This document shows, piece after piece, positions 36,112 to 39,732 of a stretch of 41,592 nt of DNA (position 1 is its first letter; each line of letters begins with the position of its first letter). A program made the position numbers and the translations under genes. The notes beneath the pieces are model-generated. The model was not told the origin of the DNA and made no database searches. It saw nothing but the letters and a program-made list of their open reading frames with translations. This DNA comes from Pseudomonas phage LPPA15: the sequence record PV112476.1. One strand, given 5' to 3'.

Positions 36112-36140
36112 AGCATACAACGCACTTTATCAAGTGTCAA
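36112..36140 (-). promoter_or_regulatory. Sigma70-like promoter TTGACA-N17-TATGCT with a palindromic operator-like site CACTTTATCAAGTG (36122-36135) in the spacer
   Basis: Read directly. The same ACTTTATCAA core recurs in a second palindrome at 36249-36268. Confidence 0.45.
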
Positions 36141-36410
36141 GTTTTTTATTAAAAGTCGTTGTTATACGGATAGAAGGGGTCGTATAGTGTCTAAGTCATT
36201 GAAATATATAGATGTATAATAAATATAATGAATATAATAGCTAATAATCTTACTTTATCAATAGTAAGCTTTTAATTAAGAGTAGGGGCGGTAGGGGTGG
36301 AATCAGCCTTAAACGTTCAATTTATTATATTTTTGGAAAAAGCTTTGCGAATCAACGACTTAGGCGTTATACGCGGGCCTTATATTTGCCATCGGCTATT
36401 ATACGCGAAG

Positions 36411-36448
36411 CTTAAACGAAAAGACCGAACCTTGTTAGAAGTTCGGTC
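36411..36448 (-). terminator. Rho-independent terminator (GACCGAAC...GTTCGGTC hairpin with UUUUCGUUU on the minus strand) immediately after the RF-domain gene
   Basis: 8-bp perfect stem with a 10-nt loop and a U-run, 7 nt after the stop at 36455. Confidence 0.6.
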
Positions 36449-36454
36449 GTAGTG

Positions 36455-36820
36455 TTAGAAAAGGCATTGGCCGTTAAGTCGTCTTATGAACGCATGGGCT
36501 TTATAGTAAAGGTCGCCGGTTCCACGTTTCCAAGTCGAAACGCGCCAGTATCCAGCAACGAACACAATATGCGGTTTGCCCGGCGTGCGTTCGCGAATGG
36601 TCGAATTGTCGAAACTTTCTTTCGTCGGCTTCCAGTTTGCGACCTTGGCTTGCAGTTCTTCGAAAGCTTTTGCTTTGTTGCGATGCTGCGAACGTTCTTC
36701 GGCACATTCTGCGACCAAGCCGGAAGGAATATGCTTAATACGAACGCCGTTGTAATTCGGAACCCATGCCGAACCGCTGTTGTACGTCGTAACTTCAATG
36801 TCTGCGGGTTGAATATTCAT
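36455..36820 (-). CDS. Peptide-chain release factor GGQ-domain (RF-1 domain 3) homologue lacking the GGQ motif
   Basis: NIQPADIEVTTYNSGSAWVPNYNGVRIKHIPSGLVAECAEERSQHRNKAKA aligns to RF1/RF2 ...[50 protein letters not shown] with GGQ replaced and a 3-4 aa deletion. 121 aa, stand-alone. Confidence 0.6.
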   Translation of the reverse strand: MNIQPADIEVTTYNSGSAWVPNYNGVRIKHIPSGLVAECAEERSQHRNKAKAFEELQAKVANWKPTKESFDNSTIRERTPGKPHIVFVAGYWRVSTWKRGTGDLYYKAHAFIRRLNGQCLF

Positions 36821-36881
36821 AGCTTCATTCCTTCCGGGTCAATGTGGGCAGGCAAGCCCCATTCCGGGGCCGCTGGCGGGG

Positions 36882-37097
36882 TTACAGGAACGCGACGGTA
36901 TCCGACAGGTCCAAAGCCCGGCAAACAGCCTTGCGGCGTTCCTGCGCCTTGTCGTCGGGCGCGCTGCGCATCCAAATATCGGCGGCGCGTTGCGCATGTT
37001 CCGGGCCTGCGGTTCGCATAGACGCGATACGGTGCGCTTCCTTTGCTTCGTTCTTCGTAACTTCGACGACTTGGCGGTTAATACTCATTTTGTGCAT
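36882..37097 (-). CDS. Hypothetical small alpha-helical protein (partner gene in the RF-domain cassette)
   Basis: ATG 37097, 71 aa, directly downstream of the promoter at 37135-37163. Confidence 0.4.
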   Translation of the reverse strand: MHKMSINRQVVEVTKNEAKEAHRIASMRTAGPEHAQRAADIWMRSAPDDKAQERRKAVCRALDLSDTVAFL

Positions 37098-37134
37098 TTC
37101 GGTTTTCCTTTCGGTTGTTGGTTACGACGATTCA

Positions 37135-37163
37135 ATGCTAGTTCGTTAAAGCTACGTTGTCAA
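37135..37163 (-). promoter_or_regulatory. Sigma70-like promoter TTGACA-N17-TAGCAT
   Basis: Plus strand atgcta...tgtcaa, just downstream (minus sense) of the terminator at 37174-37195. Confidence 0.45.
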
Positions 37164-37173
37164 GCTTCGAACG

Positions 37174-37195
37174 AAAAAAAACCGCCCGAAGGCGG
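37174..37195 (-). terminator. Rho-independent terminator (CCGCC-TTCG-GGCGG hairpin followed by U8 on the minus strand)
   Basis: Plus strand aaaaaaaaccgcccgaaggcgg, 25 nt after the stop of gene 37220..37417. A T-rich run on the plus side as well makes it potentially bidirectional. Confidence 0.65.
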
Positions 37196-37219
37196 CTTGT
37201 TGTCTTTTCGCAACGTTGT

Positions 37220-37417
37220 TCAATAGTTGATAAGGAATTGCTTTACAAACTTGCGGCGGTCTTTCGATGCTATGCACAAATCGACCAAAGGGCGGTATTC
37301 AGGTTCAACGCGGTTTCGAACCCGCTTGGCAAAGTTACGAATTTCTTTGCCGTCTGCGCCCCAATGATACAAAAGCGCGATGCCTAACGCGAAATCAAGA
37401 ATCGTAAGTTCGTTCAT
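37220..37417 (-). CDS. Hypothetical small protein translationally coupled to the primase-polymerase gene (ATGA overlap)
   Basis: Internal ATG overlapping the primase-polymerase stop. Confidence 0.35.
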   Translation of the reverse strand: MNELTILDFALGIALLYHWGADGKEIRNFAKRVRNRVEPEYRPLVDLCIASKDRRKFVKQFLINY

Positions 37418-39732
37418 AGTCCGAACGCCTTTGCGTTTGAAATCATGTAACATTGTGCCGAAGTTCCGTAAGAATCATGCGCAAGCTTCGGGCTAAGTTG
37501 CTGAATATCGCCGCGTTCCGTAAGCGTCTTCAAAGCGCGTTTAAGTGCGCCGCTTGACCCGATGCGGTCTTTGCGGAACACGGCAACGGCTGCAAGCTTC
37601 CTTTGTACGAACGAATACGGAATTACTTTATTCGAATGAAGGTTGCCCATATTTTCGCCCGCGTATTTTGAAACTTCGGGCCAAGGCGAAACGACAAATT
37701 CTTTCATCGTCGAAATTACCTTGGCAAGCTGTTTCGTTTCGTCATTGTCTATGCCGATTTCGCCAGCGTTGAAACGGTCTAGCAAGTTGCGCACGTCGGC
37801 GACAATAAGATTCGTTGCCCATGCGGCGGCATCAACGGTAACGATTGGGTCGTAAGGGTTGCAACCTACGGCGACAAGTGCGGCAAGTTTCATTGCTTTA
37901 ATGTGCGCCCGGTTCCATAAATGGCGGCGAACTTCTTTGTCGGAACTGTTAATGTTCAAATCGCAATGCCGGTCGAATTCGTCGAACAATGCTTTCGCTT
38001 CCGGCGTAAATTGAACATGAACGGCTTTATGTTGGCTGTTCAACATAAGCGAATGCGCGCAAACTGTCGAAAGCCTGTCGATAAGTTCGAAGCTTGGTTG
38101 CGCGTAAATATGATTTGGGTTAAGCGGCGGTCGGTCGCCGTGATATTCAATCGTTGTAAAGCGCGGCAAAAGACCTTCGGAAATCAAACCTTCGTGCAAA
38201 CCTTCGTAAAATTTTTCGGGCGTTGATTCGCCAAGCAATGTAAAAGCCGGGGCGGTTACTGCCGAAGTGTTCTTTTCCTTGTCCGAATAAATCGACGGTC
38301 GAAGAACCTTGCCTTCGCCGCTTTTATTGTAGGCATCCAGTAAGAAACGACGAAGGCCCATAAGGTGCGAAGGTGCGTTGGGGCTTGCCATTTGTTGCAT
38401 ATAAATTCCGAATTCGCCGACCATCGAAACGAACGACGTTGGCCCCTTCGACATATATTTAATAACGGCTTGCGACGATGCAATTTCGCCCGGCCCGATA
38501 AAATCAACGGCGGCGGGTACGGTACGGATTACTTGCGCCATCAATTTATCGACGCCGCTTGCGATAGCTTCTTTACCTGTTCCGGTCGGCGCTAGAAGCA
38601 AGACGTATTGATTAAGCCCGGTTCCCGAAACGTTGTATGCCCTGCCCACAATACCGGCCAGAAAGCCAAGCGCGCCAGCCAAGGCGATTTCGGCAACAGG
38701 GCGCGGCGCTTGTGCGTAAATGAATTGGGCGATTTCGCCGACAAGGCCGGGCGGAACCGAATAAACGTTGGTTGTCGGGGCTGGAATTGCGACAGGCTGC
38801 GGCGTTTGTTGCGTTGCGTCGCTTTGTGCCATTGCGCGCGATTGTTCGGCCTTCGCTTTGGCTTCGATTGCTTCGTTAAGTTGGTTGCGCAATCCGTCAA
38901 TATCAACGGGCGGCAACATGCGGTCGAAGCATTTGTTAAGCATGTAATTAACGTAATCGACGCGCTTTCCTTTTTCGCGTTGGCCCAAACCCGACGCCCG
39001 AAACATTCGCGAAATCTGCGCCCGGTTTTGGGTATAGAACGCGATAATATCGACCAAGGCAAAGTCGGCTTCGGATTGCGACGGGTAATAATCTTGCCAA
39101 CGACCGGCGTAAAGGTCGGCGAACTTGTCGCCGTTTGCTGCGGCTGTTGCACGCGCCAAAATTTCTTCGTCGGTTTCTTTGGCTTCGGCTACGCCAGCAT
39201 AAACGGCGGCGGCAACCGAACCCGAACCCATTTGCGACCAAAGAACGTTCAATAGTTCGCCGCAATCTTTAATCGGCGCATTGCGGTAAATGTCGCCCGT
39301 CATCGTCATATAACGCGCCGAAGAATAAACTTCGATAAACGAACGACGACGACCCGACGGCAACGCGCCTTTAACGATGATATGTAAGCCGGAACCCGAA
39401 GGCGAACGTTCGGCGTAACTGTCAAATTCGTTAAAGATTTTAACTTGACGGTCTAACGCTGTTTGGTCGCCCTTTGTGTCGTCAAGGTCGATAAACGCGA
39501 ATGGGTCGGCTTCGGTCAATACGAAACCAATTCCGCTATACATGCCGGAAGTTGTTAGAACGTGCGCCGCTTCGTCGAAACTGGCCCAAGTGCTAGGGTC
39601 GGTTACGCTGGCAAGTCTGCCGTTCAATGCTGAATAAGGAACCTTCGTCGGTTTCGGCCCGTCTGTATCTTCGTAACGCCAAACAACCCATTGGCGGAAA
39701 ATCCGCATTTCTTGCGGTATATTGTTTAACAT
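37414..39732 (-). CDS. Bifunctional primase-polymerase with a C-terminal D5/P4-type NTPase-helicase domain
   Basis: Primase-polymerase motifs FAFIDLDD and SGSGLHIIVKG in the N-terminal 130 aa. P-loop-like LLLAPTGTGKEA at residues about 378-389 in the C-terminal half. Confidence 0.65.
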   Translation of the reverse strand: MLNNIPQEMRIFRQWVVWRYEDTDGPKPTKVPYSALNGRLASVTDPSTWASFDEAAHVLTTSGMYSGIGFVLTEADPFAFIDLDDTKGDQTALDRQVKIFNEFDSYAERSPSGSGLHIIVKGALPSGRRRSFIEVYSSARYMTMTGDIYRNAPIKDCGELLNVLWSQMGSGSVAAAVYAGVAEAKETDEEILARATAAANGDKFADLYAGRWQDYYPSQSEADFALVDIIAFYTQNRAQISRMFRASGLGQREKGKRVDYVNYMLNKCFDRMLPPVDIDGLRNQLNEAIEAKAKAEQSRAMAQSDATQQTPQPVAIPAPTTNVYSVPPGLVGEIAQFIYAQAPRPVAEIALAGALGFLAGIVGRAYNVSGTGLNQYVLLLAPTGTGKEAIASGVDKLMAQVIRTVPAAVDFIGPGEIASSQAVIKYMSKGPTSFVSMVGEFGIYMQQMASPNAPSHLMGLRRFLLDAYNKSGEGKVLRPSIYSDKEKNTSAVTAPAFTLLGESTPEKFYEGLHEGLISEGLLPRFTTIEYHGDRPPLNPNHIYAQPSFELIDRLSTVCAHSLMLNSQHKAVHVQFTPEAKALFDEFDRHCDLNINSSDKEVRRHLWNRAHIKAMKLAALVAVGCNPYDPIVTVDAAAWATNLIVADVRNLLDRFNAGEIGIDNDETKQLAKVISTMKEFVVSPWPEVSKYAGENMGNLHSNKVIPYSFVQRKLAAVAVFRKDRIGSSGALKRALKTLTERGDIQQLSPKLAHDSYGTSAQCYMISNAKAFGL

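Follow-up and report, generated by a model that had tools for sequence, protein, structure and literature searches.

Few catalytic elements in biology are as conserved as release-factor domain 3 with its GGQ loop. Substitutions of the GGQ glycines, such as GAQ, abolish release and the resulting mutants serve to trap complexes, while the side chain of the glutamine, the residue that is methylated by the methyltransferase PrmC, matters less for catalysis than the glycines do. In ArfB, ribosome binding is supplied by the C-terminal element; the GGQ domain on its own fails to bind them, and ArfB without residues 101-140 is found entirely in the soluble fraction (PMC3950681). In Arabidopsis, the RF2 homologue PrfB3 has lost both its SPF and GGQ motifs and stabilises the petB mRNA (PMC5897788).

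Phages also carry genes with this domain. The family treated here is already annotated in many of them as “RF-1 domain peptide chain release factor” (PHROG 20323; ORF037 of phage 73), and phage KL1 lacks the gene found in phage 73 (PMC3483164). The literature search turned up annotation-level mentions only, and no paper on the loss of GGQ or on the function of the family. The initial annotation of the present locus, which took such a phage module to be uncharacterised, was thus right as far as functional studies in the literature are concerned, but the module had not gone unseen, since the “RF-1 domain” label was already in place.

The transcription unit and the post-primase slot

The window, meaning the whole stretch of 41,592 nucleotides of Pseudomonas phage LPPA15 DNA that was analysed, contains a member of this family within a short unit on the minus strand, the features of which are as follows.

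37170..37198, minus strand: upstream intrinsic-terminator-like hairpin AAGCCGCCTTCGGGCGGTTT followed by a T run (hairpin 37198-37179; terminator scan)
37135..37163, minus strand: predicted sigma70-like promoter, TTGACA-17-TAGCAT (consensus scan, 10/12 matches)
36882..37097, minus strand: gene for a 71-aa protein, first in the unit (ORF list; homologues in relatives L003, L005, L008 and L019)
36455..36820, minus strand: gene for a 121-aa two-module protein, with a GGQ-less RF-1 domain, a linker and a C-terminal “GYWRVS” module (ORF list)
36635..36820, minus strand: RF-1 (release factor domain 3) fold, residues 1-62 (Pfam, PHROG, Foldseek)
36764..36775, minus strand: G16-S17-A18-W19, the motif in the GGQ position (alignment and column statistics)
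36575..36634, minus strand: flexible linker, residues 63-82 (AF2 pLDDT about 50-64, and below 50 at residues 69-74)
36467..36613, minus strand: C-terminal module, residues 70-118 (alignment, AF2 model, dN/dS)
36413..36448, minus strand: downstream intrinsic-terminator-like hairpin with a 10-bp stem, followed by a T run (hairpin 36448-36423; terminator scan)

Both open reading frames, the promoter and the two bracketing terminators are present as the initial annotation had described them. Shine-Dalgarno-like stretches could be read from the sequence for each frame, GGAAGGA at 36829-36835 for the 121-aa ORF and AAAGGAAAA ahead of position 37097, where the 71-aa ORF starts, and the downstream terminator-like hairpin begins 6 nt past the stop codon of the 121-aa gene. 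The upstream hairpin is the putative end of the transcript of the primase and a 77-aa ORF. It is identical, and in the same relative position, in relatives L006 and L008; in L005, the scan detected the corresponding GC hairpin (2874-2893) on the opposite strand only. In all three of these relatives, consensus matches place an equivalent TTGACA promoter after the upstream terminator, and a terminator stands at the same downstream place but has another stem (GACCGCTTCGGCGGTC). To judge from these predicted elements, the unit of terminator, promoter, genes and terminator is real and has been kept in L005, L006 and L008. No Rfam families or tRNAs were found in the window. The 310 bp that follow the 121-aa gene have a GC content of about 30% and contain three promoter-like sites.

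The 121-aa gene lies in the early/replication region, directly past the primase gene of Septimatrevirus-like phages, in the same slot that ORF037 occupies in phage 73, and around it lie the primase gene and small uncharacterised genes, none of which is rtcB. This slot is filled in every relative compared and its content is mosaic, with the arrangements R-Y, R-Y-P, P-Y and Y alone, and with extra small genes. The region thus looks variable and less like a single inserted block. The earlier description of the unit as a moron-like insertion holds for its own predicted promoter and terminators, whereas a one-off event is less probable, given a conserved mosaic slot after the primase gene.

The release-factor domain, its loop and the second module

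The N-terminal half of the 121-aa protein matches the Pfam RF-1 family (PF00472) over residues 2-68 with an E value of 1.8e-12 and 47.6 bits, where the gathering score is 35, and residues 3-64 align with positions 2-66 of the 73 in PHROG 20323 (E 4.7e-18). The top PDB sequence matches are to residues 216-286 of E. coli RF1 (E 1e-11), with 38-42% identity across the aligned stretch. An AF2 model, with pLDDT values of 86-88 for residues 11-60, superposes with domain 3 of RF1 and RF2 at 1.7-2.6 Å over about 64 residues (Foldseek E 3e-5), and its secondary structure consists of strands at 8-13, 25-30 and 35-39 and a helix at 45-62. The sequence and structure matches include PDB 6gwt, 6gxn and 9mtq, with engineered GGQ-mutant release factors of the kind used to trap termination complexes. 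The fold that was proposed from the sequence is therefore borne out, although it extends over about 62-68 residues and not some 50. The label “ArfB-like” did not survive at the sequence level, as the ArfB equivalog (NCBIfam NF006718) scored 13.7 bits against a cut-off of 100 and RF1/RF2 domain 3 is closest. The models for full-length RF1 and RF2 (TIGR00019, 49.6 bits against 423; TIGR00020, 49.1 against 370) and for PrfH (TIGR03072, 30.8 against 166.65) likewise stayed below their cut-offs.

The loop in place of GGQ reads S15-G16-S17-A18-W19, with Ser and Ala in the two GGQ glycine positions, and no GGQ occurs at any point of the 121-aa protein. Its sole GGQ-like string, NGQ at residues 116-118, was rejected as it is not conserved among homologues. 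The stretch between the conserved Thr and the conserved His spans 19 residues, compared with 23 in each of the 49 true release factors that were measured, so the loop is replaced and four residues shorter, in agreement with the first reading of the sequence. A representative search of 1.84 billion proteins returned 3,836 matches, and among those examined (mostly the best 150 of the 3,836) a GGQ-less domain was present in 95 proteins with a median length of 135 aa, with the domain starting at the N-terminus in 78. Column statistics were drawn from 96 GGQ-less homologues, mostly short phage proteins, in which position 19 is Trp in 83% and aromatic (W/F/Y) in 97%. The retained RF-1 motifs, H.P[T/S]G and RSQH.N[K/R]..A...L, are strongly conserved column by column (H30 98%, P32 98%, N48 100%, A52 92%, L56 94%, R43 88% and H46 89%). 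Neither of the GG positions is Gly in 65 of the 96 and G-G is kept ahead of the aromatic residue in 9, while loop lengths range over 19-22, compared with 23 in true release factors. GSAW is found in 5/5 close homologues and A/T/N-S/G-A/S-W in 14/14 of the phage-73-type homologues read; since this subgroup aligns with RF1 without gaps up to the motif, the W falls on the Q. With an aromatic residue so consistently in place and the other RF-1 motifs conserved at 88-100%, the loss of GGQ is a conserved feature and not decay. A GGQ elsewhere or a sequencing artefact was ruled out, as homologues from independent samples share the same loop.

In a Pfam scan, all 84 of the GGQ-less homologues scanned matched RF-1 at E <= 0.01 and no domain other than RF-1 was found in them. 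The family is found in Septimatrevirus, Otagovirus, T4-like Acinetobacter phages and Vibrio phages, and all of the roughly 10 members whose surroundings were checked come from phage genomes or phage-like contigs. Many are a bare domain of 62-75 aa, and stand-alone GGQ-less proteins of 73 aa, such as P0049, match PHROG 20323 as well; most of the others bear unrelated C-terminal extensions. One of the Vibrio phage homologues has a GGQ-less RF-1 domain with the loop “LGNW”, and its label as a “double-stranded RNA-binding domain” (IPR014720) was not accepted as an extra domain, this entry being the structural superfamily that also includes release-factor domain 3. A segment of phiPsa381 gp005 resembles the C-terminal domain of ribosomal L7/L12 (E 1.6e-5, 25.6 bits against a cut-off of 25.9), a weak hint in the sequence at a link to the translation apparatus. 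Some phages, mycobacteriophage Cane17 among them, carry true GGQ versions. The tblastn matches in a Staphylococcus “phage” contig and a human faecal “Bacteriophage sp.” were to ordinary full-length RF2 with GGQ in unverified records and were excluded. For most members, the names “peptide chain release factor” and “peptidyl-tRNA hydrolase” are probably wrong.

The C-terminal 55 or so residues of the 121-aa protein are a second module, unrelated to the RF-1 domain, which the initial annotation had missed. Its consensus is F.N.T..E....KPHI....GYWRVS.PWK..TG.LYY.AH.F...LN., its sequence is basic and rich in aromatic residues, and its folded core in the AF2 model is a beta-hairpin (85-94) and a helix (102-117). 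No family in Pfam, PHROG, NCBIfam or PADLOC was found for the LPPA15 type; the phage-73 type has a single PHROG match, phrog_31936, with function not known. This module is the more conserved half of the protein, with dN/dS of 0.02-0.15 and nucleotide identity of 85-94%, compared with dN/dS of 0.20-0.40 for the RF-1 domain, and these ratios indicate purifying selection on each half of the gene. In the same genomic slot it also occurs alone or joined to other N-termini, and it is the mobile, constant element of the slot. The 121-aa gene is, then, a real, selected phage early gene for a two-module protein.

Possible functions of the 121-aa protein

By its fold, retained motifs and layout, the 121-aa protein can be read as a non-hydrolysing ligand of the ribosomal A site and peptidyl-transferase centre, the most likely of the readings considered, with a probability of about 0.4. 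Members of the family probably bind a target rather than cleave it, and with the hydrolysis glycines gone and the rest of the conserved surface kept, the domain most likely docks and does not hydrolyse; the functional analogy is with GAQ and GGA mutants, which sit in the A site without release. The RF-like domain would occupy the A site of the 50S subunit, towards the peptidyl-transferase centre, and leave peptidyl-tRNA intact, and the C-terminal module would be an anchor on the ribosome or on RNA, a role suggested by the parallel with ArfB in the order of domain, flexible linker of about 20 residues and basic C-terminal module. Early synthesis from the unit's own promoter could then leave ribosomes occupied, with termination, rescue or elongation modulated or blocked during host takeover. 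Since the GGQ domain of ArfB alone does not bind ribosomes (PMC3950681) and many members are bare domains or have C-terminal extensions unrelated to one another, any affinity for the ribosome would need to lie in the altered loop or in some other feature. Several points count against an A-site ligand: with four residues fewer, the loop may not reach the peptidyl-transferase centre, the C-terminal module functions without the RF-like domain in sister phages, and PrfB3, once its GGQ was lost, became an mRNA-stabilising factor and not a ligand of the A site (PMC5897788).

The succession of domain, linker and basic tail would also suit an analogue of ArfB or PrfH (AF2; PMC3950681), that is a peptidyl-tRNA hydrolase or ribosome-rescue factor still active through a remodelled loop and freeing ribosomes that stall during infection once host mRNA or tRNA has been cut. 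Every other RF-1 motif is retained, small residues precede the aromatic one, G-G persists in 9/96 members, and true GGQ versions, as in Cane17, mean that rescue-type factors exist in phages. The lesser importance of the Gln side chain points the same way, but the glycines are what release depends on in established release-factor biochemistry, and here the two positions are Ser and Ala, with no Gly at either in 65/96. With the shorter loop and the ArfB and PrfH scores so far under their cut-offs as well, continued hydrolysis is unlikely. A conserved surface whose catalytic tip has been changed to a bulky aromatic residue could alternatively be a decoy of domain 3 for a non-ribosomal host protein, either PrmC or an immune sensor, with the Trp plugging the pocket for the Gln. 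PDB 2b3t, in which PrmC sits on RF1 domain 3, is among the matches of the 121-aa protein, and the many bare domains of 62-75 aa are better suited to protein binding than to a ribosome ligand, since the ArfB domain does not hold to ribosomes by itself. The probability of a decoy is nevertheless low: loop lengths that vary over 19-22 fit a single rigid pocket poorly, neither co-variation nor partner evidence points to such a decoy, PADLOC and anti-defence families gave no match, and we know of no benefit to a phage from blocking PrmC. The constancy of the C-terminal module in the slot, where it is the most constrained part, its basic and aromatic-rich character and its occurrence alone in DLP_1, PAC1, Halfdan and other phages would fit an RNA- or DNA-binding regulator in which this module acts and the RF-like domain is a neo-functionalised RNA-binding accessory. 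Phage transcripts, or the low-GC region with its promoter-like sites just downstream at 36141-36454, are possible targets and PrfB3 is a precedent (PMC5897788). However, no nucleic-acid-binding fold could be assigned to the C-terminal module, and the RF-like domain, being under purifying selection and conserved across phages without that module, has a function of its own, which makes such a regulator improbable.

The two genes of the unit had also been proposed to form a toxin-immunity pair. They are adjacent and co-oriented, with one promoter and one terminator common to both, and the arrangement recurs in L003 and L008. Each nevertheless occurs without the other: the 71-aa gene is absent beside the RF-like homologues of L006/L007 and phage 73, and in L019 its homologue is present along with a slot protein that lacks an RF-like domain, while in L005 a 99-aa gene intervenes between the two. 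From this distribution, the 71-aa gene follows the locus and not the RF-like domain, leaving the idea of a partner without conserved co-occurrence. The 71-aa protein belongs to no Pfam, PHROG, NCBIfam or PADLOC family and had no tblastn match among 50,697 phage records, and neither protein matched a PADLOC model. A toxin-immunity or toxin-antitoxin pair is, accordingly, very improbable.

The A-site ligand reading could be extended to the family, such that RF domain 3 proteins with the loop of two small residues and Trp would be widespread phage mimics that plug the A site or peptidyl-transferase centre without hydrolysis, their C-terminal modules being interchangeable anchors or specificity elements. 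This extension is rather doubtful, but if true, these mimics would be the natural counterpart of laboratory GAQ traps, shutting down or redirecting host termination or rescue. That a large phage family keeps domain 3, swaps GGQ for an aromatic loop and has many fusion partners points to a repeated, selected viral re-use of ribosome or tRNA mimicry. If they bind ribosomes, these proteins would form a new kind of natural modulator of translation and supply tools to trap ribosomal states, and a non-ribosomal target would mean a new interaction of the GGQ domain.

Comparison with known systems

Domain 3 of RF1 and RF2 has the same fold as the 121-aa protein and shares its H.PTG and RSQH.NK..A...L motifs, but the phage protein has no GGQ, a loop four residues shorter and neither domain 1 nor the codon-recognition domains 2/4 (PxT or SPF), and it measures 121 aa in contrast to about 360. 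The layout is closer to that of ArfB (YaeJ) and ICT1, each with a small N-terminal RF-1 domain, a flexible linker and a basic C-terminal element. In ArfB, however, GGQ is present, a helix is inserted and the tail forms a basic helix reaching into the mRNA channel, whereas the tail of the phage protein is a predicted hairpin and helix of unrelated sequence. Engineered RF1 and RF2 with GAQ or GGA also place domain 3 in the A site without peptide release, but these are full-length proteins held by stop-codon recognition, and the phage protein is without decoding domains. PrfB3 is likewise a release-factor relative that was retained in a different role after losing the catalytic tripeptide, although it is a full-length plastid protein with no sign of kinship to the phage clade beyond the superfamily.

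Described relatives of the same family are ORF037 of phage 73, gp133 of Acinetobacter phage 133 and gp005 of the Otagovirus phages, which also lack GGQ, with ASAW, GRAW and GAGGM among their motifs. The 121-aa protein is 36% identical to the phage 73-type proteins across 96% of its length; the phage 73 protein has a third module that the 121-aa protein does not, and domain combinations differ across the phage RF-1 proteins.

A release-factor domain 3 that has lost its GGQ

The 121-aa protein of LPPA15 really contains a release-factor domain 3, as the initial annotation had proposed. Pfam RF-1 matches residues 2-68 with 47.6 bits (E 1.8e-12; gathering score 35), PHROG 20323 ("RF-1 domain peptide chain release factor") gives E 4.7e-18, and Foldseek fits the AlphaFold2 model to domain 3 of ribosome-bound RF1 and RF2 at 1.7-2.6 A over ~64 residues. 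Among solved structures, E. coli RF1 (residues 216-286) and RF2 (residues 233-308) come nearest. The model has a mean pLDDT of 77.8, with residues 11-60 at 86-88, and predicts three strands (8-13, 25-30 and 35-39), with a loop after the first, and a helix at 45-62. Orthology to RF1 (49 bits vs an equivalog cut-off of 423), RF2 (49 vs 370), PrfH (31 vs 167) and ArfB (14 vs 100) was rejected.

The loop reads N14-S-G-S-A-W-V-P-N-Y-N24, and the protein has no GGQ at any position, again as first claimed. All five of the closest homologues, which come from independent metagenome samples and are 75-99% identical, have G-S-A-W. Homologues of a second group, with Pseudomonas phage 73 ORF037 as its type (36% identity over 96% of the length), carry P-G-A-S-A-W or near variants, e.g., T-G-S-W or A-G-A-W. 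DTFRKPGASAW of the phage 73 group aligns with RF1 without a gap, so its Trp stands on the catalytic Gln; compared with that group, the LPPA15 subgroup lacks two further residues either side of the motif.

A set of 1.84 billion representative proteins, searched with a profile, gave 3,836 matches. Among the proteins classified, mostly from the best 150 of these, 95 had the domain without GGQ (median 135 aa; starting at the N-terminus in 78), 57 were ordinary GGQ release factors or fragments and 23 had the C-terminal module only. Across 96 aligned GGQ-less domains, Trp occupies the position of W19, which stands where release factors have GGQ, in 83%, and 97% have an aromatic residue there; the preceding pair of residues is small (Ser, Gly, Ala, Thr), and in 65 of the 96 neither GG position is Gly. 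The RF-1 hallmarks are nevertheless retained (H30 98%, P32 98%, R43 88%, S44 83%, H46 89%, N48 100%, A52 92%, L56 94%), while the Thr-to-His span is 19-22 residues, compared with 23 in every one of 49 true release factors. The absence of GGQ is a conserved feature, and the loop takes several forms:

Loop sequences in other phages
Acinetobacter phage 133 gp133: TGRAW
Acinetobacter phage Konradin: TGGARRW
Vibrio phages K470 and 1.193.O: LGNW
Otagovirus phiPsa381 gp005 (Pseudomonas phage; L010:1498-1890): GAGGM, G-G kept and Met for Gln
Rhizobium phage LG08: no aromatic residue
Mycobacteriophage Cane17: true GGQ kept

The C-terminal segment of phiPsa381 gp005 resembles the ribosomal L7/L12 C-terminal domain (PF00542; E 1.6e-5, 25.6 bits, cut-off 25.9). 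The RF2 genes in two "UNVERIFIED" phage records, OR844990.1 and MT835701.1, are complete, GGQ-bearing and of the usual bacterial type; they probably derive from a host or a contaminant and are not phage release factors.

In databases the family usually goes by "RF-1 domain peptide chain release factor", "prfA" or "putative peptidyl-tRNA hydrolase". Full-text literature searches gave annotation-level mentions of the phage proteins only, with no report of GGQ loss, Trp-for-Gln replacement or function, which agrees with the earlier statement that no such phage module was known to have been characterised. The GGQ-less clade is real, widespread and uncharacterised.

A mobile C-terminal module

The initial annotation was right about the RF-like half of the protein and overlooked what follows it. 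Residues 63-82 form a low-confidence linker in the AlphaFold2 model, and a conserved module (Y; residues 70-118) has a folded core from residue 83, predicted as a beta-hairpin and helix. Its consensus is F.N.T..E....KPHI....GYWRVS.PWK..TG.LYY.AH.F...LN, its composition is basic and aromatic-rich, and searches of profile libraries and of folds assigned it to none known. Y is a separate, mobile module: it stands alone in proteins of 58-75 aa, is fused to other N-termini and, in Stenotrophomonas phage DLP_1, forms a Y-only ORF at the equivalent position, unannotated in the record. Its fusion with the GGQ-less RF-like domain (R) is previously undescribed.

In Septimatrevirus-like phages, R, Y and a third module (P; LPPGxYxVxGxAxxExARQ) are shuffled within the slot that follows the primase gene (examples: L001:3001-3495, L002:2944-3177, P0006-P0009, P0027, P0028):

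Module orders in that slot
R-Y: LPPA15, this window
R-Y-P: phage 73
P-Y: P0007-P0009
Y-P: P0027, P0028
Y-P-Y: P0006
Y alone: DLP_1, P0010 and others

Across phages, R carries dozens of unrelated C- or N-terminal extensions, or a short ...KQMELF tail.

Codon-wise comparison of the gene with four relatives gave dN/dS of 0.20-0.40 for the RF-like half (residues 1-62; nucleotide identity 61-77%) and 0.02-0.15 for the C-terminal half (residues 63-116; 85-94%), with 10 synonymous and 0 non-synonymous changes in one pairing of the latter. Each half codes for protein and is under constraint, which is stronger in the C-terminal one; the lower dS there may also reflect recent exchange between phages.

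The transcription unit and its surroundings

Five elements lie on the minus strand at 36411-37198:

37198-37179 plus T tract, minus strand: upstream GC-rich hairpin with T run (consensus scan)
37163-37135, minus strand: near-consensus sigma70 promoter, TTGACA-17-TAGCAT (consensus scan)
37097-36882, minus strand: 71-aa ORF, Shine-Dalgarno-like sequence in front
36820-36455, minus strand: 121-aa ORF (RF-like gene), Shine-Dalgarno-like sequence in front
36448-36423, minus strand: downstream hairpin, 10-bp stem and T run, 6 nt past the RF-like stop codon

The consensus scan found 7 promoter-like sites in 2.5 kb vs 2.8 in shuffles, and this is therefore a promoter-rich early region, not a single odd cassette. 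Rfam and tRNA scans of the window found 0 Rfam families and 0 tRNAs. The relatives L006 and L008 repeat the unit: hairpin AAGCCGCCTTCGGGCGGTTT upstream, then a TTGACA promoter and, directly 3' of the RF-like gene, a terminator. In L005 the promoter and downstream terminator recur, its upstream hairpin being reported on the opposite strand only. Gene content from promoter to RF-like gene varies among the three, so the cassette is real, conserved and mosaic. The self-contained promoter-two genes-terminator unit first described thus stands; of the "moron-like insertion", the unit's own promoter and terminators hold up, and the slot reads as a mosaic variable region rather than a recent insertion peculiar to LPPA15. 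A small GC hairpin without a T run (GCCCCGGAATGGGGC, 36856-36870) between the two genes could be an RNA-processing or stability element.

The 71-aa gene, once seen as a partner of the RF-like gene, is no dedicated one. It adjoins the RF-like gene in L003 and L008, is separated from it by a 99-aa gene in L005, is replaced by an unrelated 82-aa gene in L006 and L007, is missing from phage 73, and in L019 accompanies a P-Y slot protein without the RF-like domain. Its product had 0 matches in 50,697 phage records and no family in Pfam, PHROG, NCBIfam or PADLOC. Phages whose slot holds Y or Y-P without the RF-like domain have a conserved ~68-70-aa gene directly upstream (…KG.GYFYF…W.EEAR..I..E; L020:3792-4004, L021:3789-3995, L022:315-521). 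Between the primase gene and the cassette, a 77-aa ORF (37220-37453) with a homologue in L008 overlaps the primase stop codon. The near-identical phage L003 has a 163-aa gene (L003:3188-3679) between its primase and 71-aa genes that LPPA15 lacks, further evidence for the mosaicism of the region.

LPPA15 has a Septimatrevirus-like siphophage genome, whose 772-aa primase/helicase shares 79% identity with its counterparts in Pseudomonas and Stenotrophomonas phages such as Ab26 and DLP_1. The RF-like gene takes the slot that ORF037 has in phage 73; a previous comparative study noted ORF037 as the sole annotated phage 73 function absent from the related phage KL1 (PMC3483164). Downstream are small unknown genes, a VRR-NUC/resolvase-like gene and a dCMP deaminase gene. 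Directly past the RF-like terminator, an AT-rich intergenic region (36141-36454, 310 bp; ~30-32% GC vs ~50% nearby) could be a cluster of early promoters or act in replication or regulation; positions 36306-36410 have ~74% identity to Septimatrevirus phages.

36351-36324, 36261-36234 and 36140-36112, minus strand: sigma70-like promoters
36124-36145 and 36252-36273: 22-nt direct repeat

A possible ligand of the ribosomal A site

Both glycines of GGQ are indispensable for peptidyl-tRNA hydrolysis, and GAQ and similar release-factor mutants, which bind without release, are in use for trapping complexes; several such structures are among the PDB and Foldseek matches of the RF-like protein. With Ser-Ala-Trp in a shortened loop, the RF-like domain therefore should not hydrolyse, which weighs against the alternative of a remodelled hydrolase or rescue factor. 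The rest of the conserved domain 3 surface is kept, and the simplest reading is that the protein recognises the same target: it would dock at the 50S A site beside the peptidyl-transferase centre, with the loop aromatic residue probably serving binding, not catalysis. From release-factor biochemistry, the kept surface and the layout of ArfB we infer such a non-hydrolysing ligand tentatively, at a probability of about 0.4.

Several observations count against an A-site mechanism. Many family members have no recognisable anchor, and the short loop may fail to reach the peptidyl-transferase centre. Y works without R in sister phages, and the protein may instead be a nucleic-acid-binding regulator driven by this basic module; in plants, the GGQ-less RF2 homologue PrfB3 has turned into an mRNA-stabilising protein (PMC5897788). 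The kept surface could also make the protein a decoy for a host protein that binds domain 3, e.g., PrmC. A toxin-immunity pair is a further and unlikely alternative: the 71-aa gene and the RF-like domain each occur without the other.

For the A-site ligand, a known parallel in layout is ArfB, whose GGQ domain by itself does not bind the ribosome and needs a tethered C-terminal element (PMC3950681). The 121-aa protein has an ArfB-like layout of domain, flexible linker and basic module, and by this analogy Y is a candidate anchor.
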